Source of the DNA: Alphaproteobacteria bacterium
GTDB taxonomy: Bacteria; Pseudomonadota; Alphaproteobacteria; RF32; CAG-239
NCBI GenBank assembly: GCA_045613125.1
Contig: JAZLAM010000020.1
Coordinates: 4,782 to 68,781, forward strand
Direction: 5' to 3'
DNA length: 64,000 bases
Below, piece after piece: positions 6,751 to 32,178 of this stretch. The notes under the pieces are model-generated. The model did not search any database and had not been told where the DNA came from. It was given only the letters and a program-made list of their open reading frames with translations. Numbering within the stretch: the stretch's first letter is position 1; every line of letters begins with the position of its first letter. Made by a program: the position numbers and the translations under genes.

Positions 6751-6883
6751 GTTTTTCTCCTAAAAATGTTGTTTTAAGAGAATATAATTATCATATAGAA
6801 AAAATCCACTATGTAAAATATAAAACTTGTATTTGAGCTGAAAGCGTAATATTGTAAATATATAGTTTTAAAAGGAGATGGTT

Positions 6884-8341
6884 ATGCGTTTTTATAAAAT
6901 TTTATGCGTGTCAGCATTATGTTTTGCAACTCAAGCTTTTGCTTATGATAATATCAAAAATCTGGAAATAAGTATTTATAATGATAATTTAGCTTTAGTA
7001 AAAGATACCAGAGATATCAAACTTACATTAGGTAATAATGATATTGCATTTACCGGTGTAGCCTCTCAAATTAAAGCTGAAAGTGTAATGATACTCGGAA
7101 AAGATATTAATGTATTGGAACAAAATTATGATTATGATTTAATAACTCCTCAAAATATTCTTCAAAAATCAATAGGAAAAGATGTTAAAACCATTGTGCA
7201 AAATCCCACAACAGGAGAAAATATATTTAGCAAAGCTACAGTTTTGAGTGCTGTCGGAACAAAGCCGGTTTTAAAGTTTGATTACGGAATTGAAACAGAT
7301 TTTAGCGGACGTTTGGTTTTTGAACAATTGCCGAAAAATTTACAACAAAAACCAACTTTAATGGCGAAAATATATAGTCCTAAAGCCGGAATTCAAGAAC
7401 TTGAACTTGCATATCTTACTAATGGAATTTCGTGGAAAAGTAATTATGTGGCACGTATTGTTGATGATAAGTATCTAAATTTAACATCATGGGTTGCTAT
7501 TAATAATACATCAGGAGCAGATTATAACAATGCTCAAATTCAGCTTGTAGCCGGTGATGTAAATCAAGTTAAAGAGACCGGAGTTATGACAAATAGAGTT
7601 ATGATGGCAAAGGCAGTCACTTTAGAAACAGCTAATACGGATGCTATGGGAAGCAGAGAAACTAACCAACTAAGCTCTTACCAACTTTATACTTTGCCTA
7701 ACAGGGCTGATATTAAGGATAATCAAACTAAGCAAATTAGTTTGTTTGAACGTCTAAATGTTGATTATACAAAAGAAGGACGACTAAATTCTAGTCTTTA
7801 TTTTAATGGAGGATATCAGGCGGAATTTGAAAAAACACATCCTTTAGTTTATTATATTATCAATAATACAAAATCATCTGGTTTGGATTTACCTTTACCT
7901 GCAGGAACAATCAGGTTTTATGAAAATGATGATAATGATAATATGCAGTTTATAGGAGAAAATAATATTAATCATACGGCAAAAGGTGAAAAACTTGAGT
8001 TAAGACTTGGTAAAATGTTTAATGTCTTTGTAAATGGTAAAATTATTGATGTAAATGAAGTTTCATCAAGTAGAGTAGCAAGTGCAAATAACGGATGTTA
8101 TAGCGCAGATGTAGAAAAAGATTATAAAGCGGAAGTAGAATTTAATAATGGTGGAAATGATGATGTTAATATTGTTTTCACGCAAAATCTTGGTCAAGAT
8201 GTTAAAATGATGCAAGAAAATATAAAAGGTAAAAATAAAAATATTAATCAATATGAATGGAAGATATTGGTTTTAAAAAATTCAAAAGTAAATTTGAAGT
8301 TTACAGTTAGGGTAAAATCAAGAGAACGAATTTGTAATTAA
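6884..8341 (+). CDS. secreted DUF4140/DUF4139-like (MuiA-family-like) protein
   Basis: Signal peptide (CVSALCFATQAFA). N-terminal pattern (isIYnDnlAlVkdtRdikLtlGnNdIaFtgvaSqIkaeSvmilG) resembles DUF4140. Length about 485 aa and predicted beta-rich. Start moved to the ATG at 6884, which has good SD spacing to aggag at 6873-6877. Confidence 0.45.
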   Translation: MRFYKILCVSALCFATQAFAYDNIKNLEISIYNDNLALVKDTRDIKLTLGNNDIAFTGVASQIKAESVMILGKDINVLEQNYDYDLITPQNILQKSIGKDVKTIVQNPTTGENIFSKATVLSAVGTKPVLKFDYGIETDFSGRLVFEQLPKNLQQKPTLMAKIYSPKAGIQELELAYLTNGISWKSNYVARIVDDKYLNLTSWVAINNTSGADYNNAQIQLVAGDVNQVKETGVMTNRVMMAKAVTLETANTDAMGSRETNQLSSYQLYTLPNRADIKDNQTKQISLFERLNVDYTKEGRLNSSLYFNGGYQAEFEKTHPLVYYIINNTKSSGLDLPLPAGTIRFYENDDNDNMQFIGENNINHTAKGEKLELRLGKMFNVFVNGKIIDVNEVSSSRVASANNGCYSADVEKDYKAEVEFNNGGNDDVNIVFTQNLGQDVKMMQENIKGKNKNINQYEWKILVLKNSKVNLKFTVRVKSRERICN

Positions 8342-8352
8342 TTTATCAAATT

Positions 8353-8385
8353 GCTCCTTAAAGTTTCTTAAGGAGCTTTTTTTTA
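8353..8385 (+). terminator. rho-independent terminator
   Basis: gctccttaa/ttaaggagc stem with a 6-nt loop, followed by T8. Confidence 0.65.
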
Positions 8386-8393
8386 TTTTTTTC

Positions 8394-8422
8394 TTGCAAC
8401 TTACTGAAAAATTTGGTAAATT
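8394..8422 (+). promoter_or_regulatory. putative sigma70 promoter (TTGCAA, 17 bp spacer, TAAATT) for the 1159-aa lipoprotein gene
   Basis: Hexamers and spacing read directly from the sequence; about 115-nt leader to the ATG at 8540. Confidence 0.35.
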
Positions 8423-8539
8423 GTGAGTGATAAAAAGTTTTTGTGTTTATTATGGAGAATTGAAAAGATTTTTCAAAACCGTTTGTTATACGCAAAAGCT
8501 TTAATTTTGAATATTAATCATTAAAATTTATTTTATATT

Positions 8540-11500
8540 ATGGCAAAAATTAAAACTTTTGCAGCCGTTGTTTTATGTGCTGTAATGTTCATTTCCTCTT
8601 CATGTGAGGAACAAATGGAATCAACCTATGTAGGTTTTTCTGAAGGAATTAAAAGTACAAATATGAAGTACGAAAGTATGGAATATATTGTAAAGTTTGA
8701 CACGATAGTGAATGAATTATTCACTGTTGAGCAGAATGTACTAGGAGACATCGTAGAGTATGAAAACGATCAAGCAATTGACGTAAGTAGTTTTTTCTAT
8801 GAGTTAGATCTTAACGTTAAATTTAACGTTGAACCACAGCAGGTTTATGTTCTAAAAAAGGAACAACTGAGTTCTGTTGCGATGACATCGTCAAATGTAG
8901 CAGATAAAGTTGTTAAAGACAGTACGGAAGATGATTTCACCCTTACTTCGGTTGGATGTGAATATGAGTTTGTTTTTAACGAGGGCGAAAAAGTTGTAGC
9001 AAAAAGTGTATATGAGAAAGTTTCTCATATGGACACAACTTTTTCATATGCTGAAATCAGTCGGGTATCGTATAAGAAAAGCGATAGTAAACTGGATGAG
9101 GTAAAGACAAATGAGGATTCGATCGTGCATGATGTAAATTTCTATTTTGATGTAGAAATGATTATCAAGCGAGATACCGATGAAACAAGGACGTATGTGG
9201 TAAGAGTACCTGTGGAAAGAATTTACATGGAAGAGCTGGCAGAAGCTGTAACTGAGATTAAGGATTTGGAGTATAAGGGAAAATTTGCCGTAAGGGAAAG
9301 CGAACTTTATACAGTTGAACAATATGATTTAGGTTATTATGTGACGACATTGAAGGACAAAGAAGTTACCCGTAAGATGTTCAAATATGATCTGGATTTG
9401 AATGTTAAGTTCGATATCAATCCTAAAAAAGTGACAGTTGATAGTCCAAACAAATTAACGGATGTTGCGCTTAAGAGTGCGACGGCAGGAGATGAAGTTA
9501 AGCAAGAAATTAACCAAGATGAGTTCACCAAAGCTACAGTTGAACGTGACTATGAGTTTGTGTTCAATGAAGGTGAGGTTGTAACGGCAAAATCTTTATA
9601 TCAATATCTTTATAACAAAGATATGACATTTGCATATGCTGAGATTAGAAGTGTAACATATAAGAGATATGATACAAGTCCTAATCCTAACTCAAGCGAA
9701 GATGTAAAGATTTATGATATCGACCTTTATTTTGAGGTTGATATTGAGGGTAAGGAAGGTGCTAATATTGACGGAAAATATGAAGTAGTAGTTTCATATC
9801 AACGTGTATACGAGGTACCTGATACCCCCGTTTCTGAGACGGTGATAGAGAACGTAGAATATGTGGGTCAATTTGATACCATAACCAAAAAACTCTTTAC
9901 CGTAAGACAAGAAGTCAATGGTGATTTTGTAACCTACACTCAAAATAATGAAGAAATATCAAAAGAGCATTTTGAGAGAAAATTAAATCTTGAGGCAATT
10001 TTTGATATTCCTGCTGTTGTTTACGTAAATAGCGAACAAGAACTTGCAGATGTCAGTTTGACCAGCAGCTCAAAGGATGGCAACAAGGAAACAAAGTCAA
10101 GTTCGGATGGCTTTACCACTATAACTCGTTCGCAAAATTATAACTTTAAGTTTAATTGCAATGAGAATGTGGTTTCAGCAACTGAATATGACCGAGAAAC
10201 CTATGGTGATACATTGTTGATTTATTCTTCAATTGATAATATTACATACAAAAATTGTAATGTTGAAAAGAACGAAGCAAAATCTAATGTTGATTCAACC
10301 GTATATGATGTTATGCTTTACTTTAATGTAAATGTAAAACGTCATGTCAAAACAACATCTAAAACCCATCTTGTTGCTGTTCCTTATGCTCGTGTTTTGA
10401 AACATGTAGCAAAAGATACTCTTGTAAAGAAAAATTATCGTGATGTAAGAAGAAAAATTCTTTCAAGCACTACGGAATTAGTTTCTTTTACTGAGTATGA
10501 AATTTGGAGTGTTTCAGGCGAGAAAAATGCTAAGACAATCTCTAAAGTTTTGAACTTTGGTTTTACTAATCCATCAAATCAGACAGTTTATACAACCAAT
10601 ACTAACTATAAGACAATGTCTAATGGTTCTGTAGAGGGAAAAGAAACTTCAAGCAAGGATGGAAATTGGACGGTTTATACTCAAACTAACAATTATTCAT
10701 CAACAGCTGACAATGGAAATAAGTCCTTTAACAATAAGTATTCATATAATAGCCAAAAAGCTATTTATACAAATGAACACTATACTGTTGAATTTGCTTA
10801 TGGCAATTGGTCTGTAAACGAAGGTTCAAGTAATGTCGGTTCTAAGAATGGTGAAACAACATATAATGGTAATGCATACGAAGTTTATCCATATGTAAAC
10901 AACGTATCTTACACTTATGATGTTGAAGATGATTCTTATAGTGGTAATGGACAGTCAAATGTGAATGTTTGCATTGAAAAACCGGAAGAAGATATTCTTG
11001 TAGCTATCAATTATCGTGATGTAAGAAGAGAAATTCTTTCAAGCACTACGGAATTAGTTTCTTTTACTGAGTATGAAATTTGGAGTGTTTCAGGAGCGAA
11101 AAACGCTAAGACAATCTCTAAAGTTTTGAACTTTGGTTTTAATAATCCTTCATCACAGACAGTTTATACAACCAATACTAACTATAAGACAATGTCTAAT
11201 GGTTCTGTAGAGGGAAAAGAAACTTCAAGCAAGGATGGAAATTGGACAGTTTATACTCAAACTAACAATTATTCATCAACTGCTGACAATGGAAATAAGT
11301 CATTTAACAATAAGTATTCATATAATAGTCAAAAAGCTATTTATACAAATGAACACTACACTGTTGAATTTGACTATGGAAGTTGGTCTGTAAGCGAGGG
11401 TTCAAGCAATGTCGGTTCTAAGAATGGTGAAACAACATATAATGGTAATGTATACGAAGTTTATCCATATGTAAACAACGTATCTTACACTTATGATGTT

Positions 11501-12019
11501 GAAGATGATTCTTATAGTGGTAATGGACAGTCAAATGTGAATGTTTGCATTGAAAAGGAAGTCGGTTCTATTATTCCTGAAGAATGGGGTAAAATTATCG
11601 GCGCAGGTATTTCAGCTGTTCCGGCAGATGATGTAAATGGTACTTATGCTAAAAAGTGCTTGTGTATCAGGACTGAAAACGGAGCTGTTTCTGTTGTTTT
11701 TGACATGAACTCTACTGTTCCTACTGTAGAACAAATTCTGGGAGGTAACTTTGTAGTAGGTGATTATGATGCAACATACAACAGTGGTGTGTATACTAAT
11801 GGTGAATGGGAGCCAGCAATTGCTAAGGATTTGAGTGATCGTATTGCATATTATCAAGGTGAAACTTGTATGCGTAATATTCGTCACACTACTTTGCAAC
11901 GTTGGAATTGGAGAAATGGTAATATGTCAACAGTTGTTGATGGTTATGTATTCTCAGTTTCCAACAATGGAACCATTACAATTATGTATAATGGACAATC
12001 TGTTATGCAAATGCGTTAA
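8540..12019 (+). CDS. large repetitive surface lipoprotein (1159 aa), Asn/Tyr/Ser/Thr-rich, internal repeats
   Basis: Signal peptide with lipobox-like FISSSC. Three divergent ~200-aa repeats, each containing motifs such as EYEFVFNEGE..VAKS.Y and FYFDVE. Then two ~97% identical 192-aa repeats and a unique ~150-aa C-terminal domain. No known catalytic motif. Confidence 0.6.
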   Translation: MAKIKTFAAVVLCAVMFISSSCEEQMESTYVGFSEGIKSTNMKYESMEYIVKFDTIVNELFTVEQNVLGDIVEYENDQAIDVSSFFYELDLNVKFNVEPQQVYVLKKEQLSSVAMTSSNVADKVVKDSTEDDFTLTSVGCEYEFVFNEGEKVVAKSVYEKVSHMDTTFSYAEISRVSYKKSDSKLDEVKTNEDSIVHDVNFYFDVEMIIKRDTDETRTYVVRVPVERIYMEELAEAVTEIKDLEYKGKFAVRESELYTVEQYDLGYYVTTLKDKEVTRKMFKYDLDLNVKFDINPKKVTVDSPNKLTDVALKSATAGDEVKQEINQDEFTKATVERDYEFVFNEGEVVTAKSLYQYLYNKDMTFAYAEIRSVTYKRYDTSPNPNSSEDVKIYDIDLYFEVDIEGKEGANIDGKYEVVVSYQRVYEVPDTPVSETVIENVEYVGQFDTITKKLFTVRQEVNGDFVTYTQNNEEISKEHFERKLNLEAIFDIPAVVYVNSEQELADVSLTSSSKDGNKETKSSSDGFTTITRSQNYNFKFNCNENVVSATEYDRETYGDTLLIYSSIDNITYKNCNVEKNEAKSNVDSTVYDVMLYFNVNVKRHVKTTSKTHLVAVPYARVLKHVAKDTLVKKNYRDVRRKILSSTTELVSFTEYEIWSVSGEKNAKTISKVLNFGFTNPSNQTVYTTNTNYKTMSNGSVEGKETSSKDGNWTVYTQTNNYSSTADNGNKSFNNKYSYNSQKAIYTNEHYTVEFAYGNWSVNEGSSNVGSKNGETTYNGNAYEVYPYVNNVSYTYDVEDDSYSGNGQSNVNVCIEKPEEDILVAINYRDVRREILSSTTELVSFTEYEIWSVSGAKNAKTISKVLNFGFNNPSSQTVYTTNTNYKTMSNGSVEGKETSSKDGNWTVYTQTNNYSSTADNGNKSFNNKYSYNSQKAIYTNEHYTVEFDYGSWSVSEGSSNVGSKNGETTYNGNVYEVYPYVNNVSYTYDVEDDSYSGNGQSNVNVCIEKEVGSIIPEEWGKIIGAGISAVPADDVNGTYAKKCLCIRTENGAVSVVFDMNSTVPTVEQILGGNFVVGDYDATYNSGVYTNGEWEPAIAKDLSDRIAYYQGETCMRNIRHTTLQRWNWRNGNMSTVVDGYVFSVSNNGTITIMYNGQSVMQMR
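10415..11566 (+). repeat. near-perfect tandem duplication, 2 x 576 bp (192 aa), inside the lipoprotein CDS
   Basis: aattatcgtgatgtaagaaga... at 10433 recurs at 11009 (offset 576 bp). Only scattered substitutions (e.g. K/E, E/A, T/N, A/D, N/S, A/V at protein level). Confidence 0.85.
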
Positions 12020-12040
12020 ATCTTTTCACATTATTAATTA

Positions 12041-12066
12041 CGGCGCCTTTACAGGCGCCGTTTTTG
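12041..12066 (+). terminator. rho-independent terminator
   Basis: cggcgcc tttaca ggcgccg hairpin, GC-rich in an AT-rich background, followed by T5. Confidence 0.7.
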
Positions 12067-12086
12067 TGTTAATAAAATTATAACAC

Positions 12087-12692
12087 TTAATCAGAGTGTT
12101 TTTTCCACTTATAAAAATAAACATAACAAAAATAGTCATTATCACAAGCATTATTACAAGCCTCTTTGATATCAGCTAATGTATAGCTTGTTTTAATCTC
12201 AAGATTATAAACGTTATCTGTAATTGTTGAGTATATAAAATTATGATCACCACTATAAGTTACAGCACTTATCGCATTATAATTAATCGGTAATGCAGTT
12301 TCCCAATGATGGGATAAAAAATCTACACAAAGATTTATACGATTACTTTCTCTAAAAGTTATTCCAAAGGCACCATAGCTTAATTGTATCTCACCACCAT
12401 TAGGAAGCGTACATTTATAAGACGCATCGCACAACGCTTTATCTACTATGCCTAATTTTACTGCATTTTGATTAGATATTTCTTCATCTTCGTCAGAGTT
12501 TTTTAACAACAATTCATTCAAGCCCATCAAAATATTAGAAACAATATCTACAGTTTTATTCATTTTTTGTTTGTACATGGCTTTAGAATAACCGGCAATG
12601 CCTCCAACTGACAAGACACCGATGATGGCCAAGACGCCAAGCATTTCTACCATACTTCTTCCGTCTTGATTGTTTTTAAATAATTTCATCAA
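12087..12692 (-). CDS. type IV pilin-like protein (prepilin-type N-terminal cleavage/methylation domain), orphan
   Basis: Class-III signal: short basic leader, cleavage-site Gly, then RSMVEMLGVLAIIGVLSV with Glu at +5. C-terminal Cys pairs (CDASYKC; CNNACDNDYFC) typical of a pilin D-region. SD aggag 8 nt upstream of the ATG. Confidence 0.6.
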   Translation of the reverse strand: MMKLFKNNQDGRSMVEMLGVLAIIGVLSVGGIAGYSKAMYKQKMNKTVDIVSNILMGLNELLLKNSDEDEEISNQNAVKLGIVDKALCDASYKCTLPNGGEIQLSYGAFGITFRESNRINLCVDFLSHHWETALPINYNAISAVTYSGDHNFIYSTITDNVYNLEIKTSYTLADIKEACNNACDNDYFCYVYFYKWKKHSD

Positions 12693-26805: not shown

Positions 26806-28368
26806 ATGATAGATGCTGTTAAGAAATTTTTCAAGACCGGATTTGCTGATATAAACGAAGTCTTTATTCAACCTTTTATAGAATTGTCATTTTACAAAAA
26901 ATGCTTTGTTTTAATAGTTTGTGGTTTGCTTCTTTATGTCCCATATATAAATTTGGTAAACGCCTCTCATGACGAACAGTACACAATGTTAATGAATCGG
27001 TTTTCTATCCCGGAGATGATTAGAATTATTGCAACCGAAGACGGACATCCTCCGTTTTCTTATCTGTATGCTAAGTTTTGGTGTGTGTTGTTTGGTGGCG
27101 ATGCATATAATATTTTACCGATGCGTATTGCGACACTTTTTAGTTTTTTTATGTTAGCACTGTTAGGGGTGTTTCCTGTAAGACGTTTGTTGGGTGATAA
27201 AGTAGCTCTTATCTTTATTGCTTCGGTTTTCTTGTTGCCATCGGCATATTTCTTAGCTATGAACATGAGAATGTATCCGTTAGCAGTGTTTTTGATTACG
27301 GGAACATTTATCTATGCTATGCTGATGGTTTATAAACCTAAGAAATTCGATTGGTTGTTGTTTGGCATATTTTCACTTCTTTCTCTTTATACTCACTACT
27401 ATGCTGCCATTTTAACAGTGGTTATTTGGGGAGTGGTGTTCCTTGATTTGATACGCCTTAAAAAATATAAAACTCTTAAAAAGTTTTTCTTAGGTGGTGT
27501 CGTAATTTCTCTTATGTACTTACCATGGTTGTTTGCTTTTATGCAACAATATCAAAATATGAAAGAAAATTGGTATCCGACAACAAATCATGTGTTTTTT
27601 GCTATTAGAGGAGCTTTGATGATTTACCAATCTCCGATAGAGATTTTTACTCTTTTTGCTGAGTTTTTCGGAATTTTATGTTGGTTATTGGTTTTTGAAT
27701 TTTTAATTGATAAAGATAAGAAAAATATTACGCATGTTGTTGTAAAACGAGCAGTTTGGGTGTTTTGGAGTATTTATATTATATCAGCATTATCTTCTAT
27801 CTTTTTTAGACCTAACTTAGTGGCAATGTATATGTGTATACCAGTAGGATTATTATATTTAAGCATTGCGATAACTTTTGTGCACTTCAAAAAATACAGA
27901 ACAATGCTTTTACTTTTCTTATTTCCTGTATTTTTAGTTGGTTATAGTGAATGTTATTATAAAGCTAATGATGAAACACTAGGTAATATGAAAAAATATA
28001 TTCAAACAAATATGTCGAAAGATACTTTAGTGTTATATGATTATACTCATGGACATATAAATATGATGTTTTATGGCAAAGACGCCAAGCTTTATTCCAC
28101 ATTATATAAAAACTACTTAGTTTTATATAAAGATGAAGTGCTAAAGGAAGAAGATAATATTAAAGATTTAAGTAAATATAAAGACATATATCATCTTTCG
28201 GTGCTGTGGTGGGACAATGAATATGGTGGATGTGATGCATCATTTGCAGCAAAATATGAAAGAAAATTTTATTGTTTTAATAAACTGGATGTCAAACAGG
28301 CAGAAAAACTTATTGAAAAGAAGAAAAGTTTTCGAATATTATCACTTGGTAATGTCCAGAAACACTAA
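26806..28368 (+). CDS. GT-C fold membrane glycosyltransferase (ArnT/PMT_2, GT39/GT83-like)
   Basis: About 11 TM helices. First periplasmic loop EDGHPPFSYLYAKFW resembles the ArnT/PMT motif. C-terminal ~140-aa soluble domain. 4-nt gaps to flanking genes indicate an operon. Confidence 0.55.
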   Translation: MIDAVKKFFKTGFADINEVFIQPFIELSFYKKCFVLIVCGLLLYVPYINLVNASHDEQYTMLMNRFSIPEMIRIIATEDGHPPFSYLYAKFWCVLFGGDAYNILPMRIATLFSFFMLALLGVFPVRRLLGDKVALIFIASVFLLPSAYFLAMNMRMYPLAVFLITGTFIYAMLMVYKPKKFDWLLFGIFSLLSLYTHYYAAILTVVIWGVVFLDLIRLKKYKTLKKFFLGGVVISLMYLPWLFAFMQQYQNMKENWYPTTNHVFFAIRGALMIYQSPIEIFTLFAEFFGILCWLLVFEFLIDKDKKNITHVVVKRAVWVFWSIYIISALSSIFFRPNLVAMYMCIPVGLLYLSIAITFVHFKKYRTMLLLFLFPVFLVGYSECYYKANDETLGNMKKYIQTNMSKDTLVLYDYTHGHINMMFYGKDAKLYSTLYKNYLVLYKDEVLKEEDNIKDLSKYKDIYHLSVLWWDNEYGGCDASFAAKYERKFYCFNKLDVKQAEKLIEKKKSFRILSLGNVQKH

Positions 28369-30470: not shown

Positions 30471-32024
30471 TTATCTTGCATATTGATTAAATATATATGC
30501 ATTTATATCTGGAGTAAAACCATTATCTTTTATGCGTTTATTATTGATAGAATTTTGGATTATATGTCCATACCTGTTAGAGACCTGATATATACCTTCA
30601 AAACGAGCAATTTCCGAAGCTGAAAGGTTTGTAAAAGCTTCTTCAATATCCAAAGATGCAGAAGGTGAAAATTCATCAAAAGTGGGTTCTAACTTACCAA
30701 TCATGCGTAAAAAACACATTCTGTTAGTTTCATCATCAAGGCTAAAAGCTTCTTTTGCATTAAAATCTTTTAACGATTCCGGCATATATTCATTAAACAA
30801 AAAGTCTCGGCATTCTTTATATGTTCCGTCTGCAAAATCTGGCTCGGCTTCAATCTGGAGATATCCATCATCTTCGAGGCGTCTTACTTTATCAACAACC
30901 ATCATATTATATTGATGTATTGCATTTTTGTTTATTTGTGCAATTTTGTTCGTCAAGATTTTCTTTCTTGCCAATAACTGAGCTTTTTCCATTTCTTGTT
31001 GTTTAACATTTTTTTGCATTCTTATTTCTTCAGGATCTTGGCTGTTTTTATTAAGTTGTTTTTTTAATCTCTCTGTTTTATCATAGTCTTTATTTATCTG
31101 TTTTTCAATTTCTCTAATTTCTTCATAAACTTTATGAGTTCTTATATCTGCATAATAAAGACAATCTATTTTGAATTGTACTTCTGTATCAATTATTTGG
31201 CCTTCTTCATCAGGAATATGTAAAACAAGTTTGATATCAAAATACATTTTGGGGTTATCTTCCAATTTGTCGGTAAAACGATTACGAGTTTCTTCAAAAA
31301 TGGTATAATAAGGCTCTTCTTCTTTTATCCTTTTTTCTTCAGAAGCGTTGGTTTTGTGATAGTCTTTGGAATTTTTTGTACATATGGTTCTGTCTCTTTG
31401 AAACAAATTACAAACACGTTCAACATCGGTTTTGTATTTACAAGTTACCGTAAGGCGTAAAGGATCATGTAACTTACTGCTTGGAGACGGTATATCTTGT
31501 AAAGCTGAAGTATATCCTTCTCTATCTTCATCAATAAATGCAATATCCGAAATTTTATGCAACTCTTTATTATATTCTTTACCATATTCATAAATGGTTT
31601 TATCAACCGCTCTTCTTGCATCTTTCATTTTCGGAAAGATAATTTTTATCGGATTGTTAAATTTATCAAAATATAAAAGTTCGGTGTTTGTGAAAGGAGT
31701 AACAACTTTTAGCGAATAGTTTATCGGAGCTCCGTTTGCATCTGTTTCAACTTTACCGGTGTTAAGATCAATTGCATAAGTTGCTTCCGGTTGTCTGAAT
31801 AAGTCAAAAATAGCACGATATGTACGATTATATATTTTACCTGGATTTTTATAAAACTTTTTTAAACAGTCATAACTAATGTCATCAATTTCCATATCTT
31901 TATATGCTTGATAAATAATCGCAAGGTTTTTCTCAGACATTTCGGATATAATTTCTTTTATCCGATTCTTAGGCATTTCAAAAACTTCACTTACACTATA
32001 TTCTTTTTCTTTATTTTCTAACAT
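30471..32024 (-). CDS. hypothetical protein, ~517 aa, central coiled coil; no confident domain
   Basis: Start set at MLENKEKEY (aagg SD 9 nt upstream). Weak, unverified resemblance of the segment QIIDTEVQFKIDCLYYADIRTHKVYE to the RelA/SpoT-synthetase EIQIRT...WAE.EH..YK motif. Confidence 0.35.
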   Translation of the reverse strand: MLENKEKEYSVSEVFEMPKNRIKEIISEMSEKNLAIIYQAYKDMEIDDISYDCLKKFYKNPGKIYNRTYRAIFDLFRQPEATYAIDLNTGKVETDANGAPINYSLKVVTPFTNTELLYFDKFNNPIKIIFPKMKDARRAVDKTIYEYGKEYNKELHKISDIAFIDEDREGYTSALQDIPSPSSKLHDPLRLTVTCKYKTDVERVCNLFQRDRTICTKNSKDYHKTNASEEKRIKEEEPYYTIFEETRNRFTDKLEDNPKMYFDIKLVLHIPDEEGQIIDTEVQFKIDCLYYADIRTHKVYEEIREIEKQINKDYDKTERLKKQLNKNSQDPEEIRMQKNVKQQEMEKAQLLARKKILTNKIAQINKNAIHQYNMMVVDKVRRLEDDGYLQIEAEPDFADGTYKECRDFLFNEYMPESLKDFNAKEAFSLDDETNRMCFLRMIGKLEPTFDEFSPSASLDIEEAFTNLSASEIARFEGIYQVSNRYGHIIQNSINNKRIKDNGFTPDINAYIFNQYAR

Positions 32025-32178
32025 GTTACAACCTTTCATGAAGAAACATTTTGCCATAAATTTTATTGTTTGGCAAGTTTTAATTTTAGTCCTAAATAAA
32101 AATATACATGTGTGTTAAATGATAAAAGAGTTGAGGTTTAAAAATATACTGTTATTCTTAAACTCAAGGAGAAATATA

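Follow-up and report, generated by a model that had tools for sequence, protein, structure and literature searches.

A candidate lipid-anchored stalk-and-head protein of gut Alphaproteobacteria with a C-terminal domain common to phage fibres

Results

Gene and domain architecture

The DNA analysed here is a stretch of 64,000 nucleotides (the window; GC 32%) from an uncultured low-GC gut Alphaproteobacterium, and its setting is chromosomal and housekeeping in character. On the forward strand, at 8540-12019, it carries an intact open reading frame (ORF) of 1159 codons with an ATG start. The product combines a lipoprotein-type signal peptide, three divergent copies of one all-beta domain (R1), two very similar copies of a second (R2) and a C-terminal domain (CTD) with homologues at the distal ends of phage fibres. 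We propose, with a probability of roughly 0.5, that this gene encodes a lipid-anchored stalk-and-head binding protein, that is, an adhesin. The features of the gene and of its flanks are as follows.

8353-8386 (+): terminator-like hairpin (8353-8376) with a T-tract; 9-bp stem, 4 GC pairs, T8 tail; closes the upstream DUF4139 gene
8387-8539 (+): AT-rich 5' intergenic region, from the sequence
8540-8605 (+): lipoprotein signal peptide, aa 1-22, ending in the putative lipidation Cys22 (FISSS/C)
8606-8677 (+): post-Cys tether, aa 23-46; acidic stretch EEQME, then S-T-[FY]-[VLI]-G; placed from aligned N-termini
8678-9244 (+): R1a, all-beta candidate stalk domain of about 190 aa, aa 47-235; from self-comparison
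9266-9847 (+): R1b, aa 243-436; the copy used for the R1 model
9854-10414 (+): R1c, aa 439-625; from self-comparison
10415-10990 (+): R2a, Asn/Tyr/Ser/Thr-rich all-beta domain of 192 aa, aa 626-817; from self-comparison
10991-11566 (+): R2b, young tandem duplicate of R2a, aa 818-1009; 93.8% nucleotide identity to R2a
11567-12016 (+): CTD, unique C-terminal domain of 150 aa, aa 1010-1159; the most conserved domain of the family and the proposed binding head
12040-12071 (+): intrinsic-terminator-like hairpin (12040-12061) with a T-tract; 9 bp, 7 GC pairs, 20 nt past the stop codon

The N-terminus (MAKIKTFAAVVLCAVMFISSSC) has a basic n-region and a hydrophobic core that leads to Cys22, and the residues MAKIKTFAAVVLCAVMFISSS in front of this Cys agree with the sequence criteria for bacterial lipoproteins processed by signal peptidase II (SPII); acylation of the Cys itself is predicted from these features. 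When 160 sequences were screened, a Cys after the hydrophobic core was present in 96 relatives as well as in the protein studied here, and it is invariant in the family alignment (A1), which bears out the lipoprotein-type signal read in the initial annotation. Acidic residues follow the Cys directly, both here (CEEQME) and in relatives (CSKEDD, CEKDD, CTKDS), and the S-T-[FY]-[VLI]-G motif that comes next (aa 28-32, nt 8621-8635) is conserved across the family. A surface-export signal made of acidic residues at +2 to +5 relative to the Cys has been defined for Bacteroidota only, and the present organism is labelled Alphaproteobacteria.

Two repeat families and a unique C-terminal domain

Self-comparison confirmed the layout that had been read from the letters, namely three divergent repeats of about 200 aa, two younger ones and a unique C-terminal domain. 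The three R1 copies are old, since they share only 32-40% identity over about 180 aa (pairwise BLASTP, E 1e-21 to 2e-39), and the repeat motifs quoted earlier correspond to the R1 family consensus NYxFxFNEGExV / LYFxVEV / VxVPYxRIYK. R2a and R2b, on the other hand, form an exact in-frame tandem unit of 576 nt. They differ at 36 of these 576 nucleotides and at 14 of 192 residues, with 95% nucleotide and 94% amino acid identity over the BLAST-aligned core, so that the earlier estimate of about 97% has to be lowered to 93-94%. With a dS of about 0.15 the duplication is young but not brand-new, and both copies are under purifying selection (dN/dS 0.29). The two also resemble each other more than either resembles P0001, the nearest orthologue (81-82%).

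An assembly duplication was considered as the source of the R2 pair, and the 6% divergence argues against it. The homologous gene is truncated at the contig end in two other alphaproteobacterial metagenome-assembled genomes (MAGs; L001 1-1248 and L002 2-1369); short-read assemblies evidently break inside this gene, and repeat copy numbers taken from MAGs, including that of R2 here, are therefore uncertain.

Asn, Tyr, Ser and Thr together make up 34.7% of the protein, in keeping with the composition described before. About 25 Tyr, Trp, Asn and Ser positions are invariant in R2, and many invariant Tyr, Trp and Asn residues are found in R2 and the CTD taken together. Neither self-comparison nor profile-profile comparison found a relative of the CTD elsewhere in the protein. 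The idea that R1, R2 and the CTD are diverged copies of a single domain was rejected, as the hhalign probabilities are below 1%, although the secondary-structure patterns of R1 and R2 are alike.

All-beta models and database searches

AlphaFold2 models built from family alignments are all-beta, both for R1b (pLDDT 95.7, pTM 0.86) and for R2b together with the CTD (pLDDT 94.5), and thus agree with the beta-rich character suggested previously. R1 and R2 are each modelled with about 12-14 strands, many of which are 12-17 residues long. The Ig-like fold that had been expected for each repeat was not confirmed, as Foldseek returned no match of the models to the PDB at E ≤ 1e-3; structure comparison likewise placed the domains neither with the Ig-like sandwich repeats of adhesins (Big, cadherin-like or invasin-type) nor with the elongated beta fold of solved aerolysin/ETX-MTX2-type beta pore-forming toxins. 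All three domain types (R1, R2, CTD) may have folds that solved structures do not yet include.

No curated family in Pfam, NCBIfam, PHROGs or PADLOC matched the whole protein or any of its domains, and the family profile matched no PDB sequence. The CTD profile alone reached only a pullulanase among PDB sequences, at a non-significant E of 0.16. The earlier view that the protein belongs to no recognised family is thus upheld, and a literature search found nothing relevant.

A modular family with a conserved C-terminal domain

The family is a rare one. The protein has only 30 close homologues in a database of 5.8 billion sequences, and an exhaustive HMMER scan of 1.84 billion representatives gave a family of 104 clusters at 50% identity. 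Named members and related contigs are labelled 'MAG: Alphaproteobacteria bacterium' and have a GC content of 32-42%. One MAG encodes two or more divergent paralogues. All 30 full-length homologues have a signal peptide, and the lipoprotein members share one design, in which an SPII signal with the conserved Cys is followed by a short acidic stretch, an S/T-[FY]-[LVI]-G motif, a spacer and the CTD.

The spacer is the variable part. It holds zero to four R1 and zero to five R2 domains in varied combinations, and in members of about 200 aa (for example P0145 and P0152) it is reduced to an acidic, low-complexity, disordered linker. Since the number of spacer domains varies so widely, down to a bare linker, the CTD is probably an autonomous functional unit, with R1 and R2 mainly providing distance. 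Duplications of all ages have occurred independently across lineages (R1 in P0003 at 97% and in P0053 at 84% identity; R2 in P0013 at 96%, in P0032 at 90% and in the present protein at 93%). Evolution can therefore adjust the length of the spacer by duplicating entire domains in tandem and in frame. Conservation, given as mean pairwise identity, rises with distance from the anchor, from 44-54% in R1 to 59% in R2 and 65% in the CTD.

Several further relatives were noted. P0114 (656 aa) has an R1 domain, tandem 'KPNLISKSFTENGVYNPENGTDGYNQITINV' repeats and an unannotated C-terminal domain, and it lacks a signal peptide; R1 may for this reason also circulate outside lipoproteins, possibly in phages. 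Distant members that look Bacteroidota-like also exist, on short contigs. On a 2.04-Mb contig of 47.5% GC (GCA_965643355.1; locus L016, 3578-11273), a pair of autotransporter genes encloses two distant R2-repeat lipoprotein paralogues (730 and 1090 aa), a placement that hints faintly at a surface role. The 1090-aa paralogue is very widespread, being indexed in 630 collection blocks and belonging to a 90% cluster of 372 members. P0169, a 264-aa fragment in the 90% cluster of the protein studied here, carries the JGI/IMG label 'SHS2 domain-containing protein', which is unsupported here and looks like an automatic mislabel.

The C-terminal domain is shared with phage fibres

The CTD of the present protein aligns over its full 150 aa with the C-termini of P0068 and P0069 at 44% identity (E 7e-51 and 9e-41), and many CTD-bearing proteins without a signal peptide are phage virion proteins. 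The N-terminus of P0069 matches a PHROG tail protein (E 6e-7) and a tail fibre (E 1e-5), with a weak Mtd_N match besides, and its 40-kb contig carries an SU10-type major capsid protein. In P0068, P0100, P0142 and P0143 the CTD follows a Head_fiber_dimeric domain (up to E 4.7e-16, in P0100), with or without an intervening PEGA domain, which is present in P0068. The same head-fibre N-terminus is found in short '(F/M)WSKKLL...' proteins, one of which, P0134, is flanked by a 769-aa protein and a lysozyme and adjoins a 1884-aa LPD38 protein. P0156 is encoded between the capsid and lysozyme genes of a 39-kb temperate phage, and in P0159 a CTD-like domain is fused to a Pam3_gp18 baseplate domain. Three CTD-type proteins lie within phage structural modules.

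In similarity, phage and lipoprotein CTDs interleave: a phage CTD resembles those of lipoproteins no less than those of phage proteins with another architecture. In a divergent subtype, the CTD of phage protein P0159 shares 44% identity with that of lipoprotein P0109, as against 22% with other phage CTDs. This interleaving and the pairing of P0159 with P0109 point to repeated exchange of the CTD between phages and host lipoproteins. The present protein is not itself a phage fibre by the marks of that class, since a signal peptide stands where an N-terminal virion-attachment module would be, and no phage structural cluster surrounds its gene.

P0068 is encoded on a phage-like fragment of 31% GC (L010 158-5078 / L011 1004-3974), where it follows a 636-aa protein with faint YadA_head matches. 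L010 also carries an LRR_5 (BspA-like) protein, so that several adhesin-type modules are clustered on this fragment.

Transcription unit and gene neighbourhood

Terminator-like hairpins flank the lipoprotein gene on both sides, and it is thus probably a monocistronic transcription unit of its own. Within 8387-8539 there is no sigma-70-like site on the forward strand, and no Rfam element or other regulatory RNA was found upstream of the gene. The 20 nt before the ATG at 8540 (8520-8539) contain no Shine-Dalgarno-like motif, the leader being made of A and T only (…AAATTTATTTTATATT ATG).

Neighbouring genes in the window encode SecDF, an aldo-keto reductase, FadL, an Aas-like enzyme and MetRS. 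The FadL assignment is secure (Pfam Toluene_X, E 7e-100). The N-terminus of a 200-aa ORF on the reverse strand at 12087-12692 is of the prepilin type (MKLFKNNQDG/RSMVEMLGVLAIIGVLS), and NCBIfam links this ORF weakly (E 4.5e-4) to prepilin peptidase-dependent proteins; it has no adjoining pilus or type II secretion genes and has its own terminator-like hairpin (12831-12806). Upstream, at 6878-8341 on the forward strand, a DUF4139/DUF4140 protein has a signal-peptide-like N-terminus and resembles the 'mucoidy inhibitor MuiA' subfamily only weakly, scoring 39 bits where the cutoff is 112.6, and it does not stand beside the homologues elsewhere. Those homologues are set in unrelated housekeeping surroundings (nuo genes, UvrA, the mraZ division cluster) with no neighbour in common. 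For this reason we rejected the idea that the gene works together with its pilin-like, FadL or DUF4139 neighbours. The pilin-like gene and the FadL porin named in the initial annotation are indeed present, but the implied link falls and both are incidental.

The rest of the window repeats no part of the gene and hence contains no silent cassette, and a diversity-generating retroelement target was rejected, as the window contains no template repeat. Further away are a 2026-aa ORF (36763-42846, reverse strand), in which Pfam recognises only some 50 residues of Peptidase_M48, close to the N-terminus, and leaves the other 1900 or so residues unannotated, and two ORFs of about 520 aa (26806-28368, forward; 30471-32057, reverse) with no Pfam match at E ≤ 0.001.

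Discussion

A proposed stalk-and-head adhesin

We infer that the protein, after Sec export, would be acylated at Cys22 and thereby held by a membrane. This is most probably the outer membrane, the chain pointing outward. The five domains (three R1 and two R2), each of about 190 aa, all-beta and presumably rigid, would then act as an extended spacer that holds the CTD away from the membrane. There the CTD, possibly with the adjacent Tyr/Trp/Asn-rich R2, would bind a ligand on cell surfaces or mucosa, in all likelihood a glycan, in a role parallel to its outermost position on phage head fibres, tail fibres and the baseplate protein. Of the two roles proposed earlier, candidate adhesin or antigen, the first gains from this homology to the distal domains of phage fibres. 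A variable surface antigen is not a favoured reading: conservation peaks in the membrane-distal CTD, the opposite of the pattern that such an antigen would give.

Several observations count against this proposal. The residue at position -3 of the lipobox is a non-canonical Ser, most relatives having L, V, I or F at -3 or -4. No Slam (DUF560) gene adjoins the gene in the window or its homologues in loci L003-L007, there is no other export partner beside the present gene, and we know of no established surface-sorting rules for lipoproteins of Alphaproteobacteria. In neither structure nor sequence did the CTD match a known lectin, carbohydrate-binding module or adhesin domain. The phages that carry CTD proteins are absent from IMG/VR and GenBank phages, and the CTD had no match in plasmids either. 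The C-terminal domain of a phage fibre can also serve folding or oligomerisation instead of binding, and under immune or phage pressure an exposed tip is seldom so strongly conserved.

Alternative readings

A lipoprotein with tandem beta domains could instead hold a polysaccharide or another substrate at the cell surface for uptake as a nutrient, in the manner of the glycan-capturing SusE and SusF, without attaching the cell to anything. The acidic residues after the Cys, which resemble the Bacteroidota surface-export signal, the invariant aromatic and Asn residues of R2 and the CTD, and the nearby FadL transporter would all suit such a function. However, FadL is not a conserved neighbour, the homologues have no consistently adjoining transporter, glycosidase or regulator, and the use of the CTD on phage fibres points to attachment; we therefore regard substrate capture as unlikely.

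Equally unlikely, in our estimate, is a lipoprotein that faces the periplasm and serves the structure of the envelope, as a spacer or tether between membrane and cell wall whose CTD sits on peptidoglycan or another periplasmic partner. This is the default orientation of proteobacterial lipoproteins, it would dispense with the surface-export partner for which we see no evidence, and a spacer of variable length could tune envelope geometry. On the other hand, a chain of five domains probably far exceeds the typical width of the periplasm, as judged from domain count and the long strands, the head fibres of phages that carry the CTD never enter the periplasm, and no known peptidoglycan-binding domain was matched.

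The homology to head-fibre, tail-fibre and baseplate proteins also allows a direct part in phage interaction. The CTD could mask the phage's surface receptor as a receptor mimic, or could itself be a phage receptor through homotypic CTD-CTD contacts. The pairing of phage and host subtypes (P0159 with P0109) is as expected for a common niche, and the divergent paralogues within one MAG would also fit. The gene is nevertheless set among housekeeping genes, in neither a defence island nor a prophage, and no PADLOC defence model matched. Moreover, the CTD is the slowest-evolving part of the protein, whereas arms-race interfaces usually evolve fastest, and for self-association of the CTD we have no evidence. 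This role seems a little less probable still than the two preceding ones.

Finally, a gene without function, either a decaying domesticated phage fibre gene or a product of assembly artefacts in the repeats, is very improbable, for although the CTD is common to phages and homologues break short-read assemblies, the ORF is intact, the full-length homologues all keep their signal peptides, the R2 copies are divergent and under purifying selection, and no phage genes are nearby.

Significance and comparison with known systems

To our knowledge, low-GC gut Alphaproteobacteria of this type are uncultured and no means of attachment has been described for them; the family provides a defined candidate for it. 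It also offers three confidently modelled beta-domain families without a Pfam entry or a structural neighbour in our PDB searches, and a clean natural example of stalk-length tuning through whole-domain duplication. If a binding head is indeed traded repeatedly between surface lipoproteins and the fibres of phages presumed to infect these bacteria, this would open a direct way to study host range and adhesion in a clade without cultured members. Should the CTD compete for a phage receptor, this would be a new passive anti-phage mechanism, based on a chromosomally encoded mimic of a receptor-binding protein; should CTD-CTD contact occur, the lipoprotein would be a docking site for CTD-tipped phages and a means of cell-cell aggregation.

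Among known systems, the surface lipoproteins of Bacteroidota (SusE/SusF-like) are similar in their SPII signal, in the acidic residues next to the Cys and in tandem beta domains with a binding domain, here a proposed one, at the end. The present organism, however, is labelled Alphaproteobacteria, and there is no polysaccharide-utilisation locus and no match in sequence or fold. The Slam-dependent lipoproteins of Neisseria (TbpB, fHbp) are likewise proteobacterial, are thought to be surface-displayed and have a conserved C-terminal beta domain, but in the loci examined no Slam gene is adjacent, and the sequences show no similarity. Phage head and tail fibres (Head_fiber_dimeric PF25641; PHROG 1396, 9648) carry a homologous CTD as the module furthest from the point of attachment. 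The present protein differs in having no virion-attachment N-terminus, in its lipoprotein signal and five beta domains, and in its chromosomal housekeeping setting; in phages, too, the CTD is unnamed and uncharacterised. The repeat-stalk adhesins (intimin/invasin, SraP, Bap-like and Big-domain proteins) also rank among the closest known systems. A modular repeat-stalk surface protein is thus of a familiar kind, and what is new here are its unnamed domain families, structurally unmatched in our PDB searches, and a head that is common to phage fibres.

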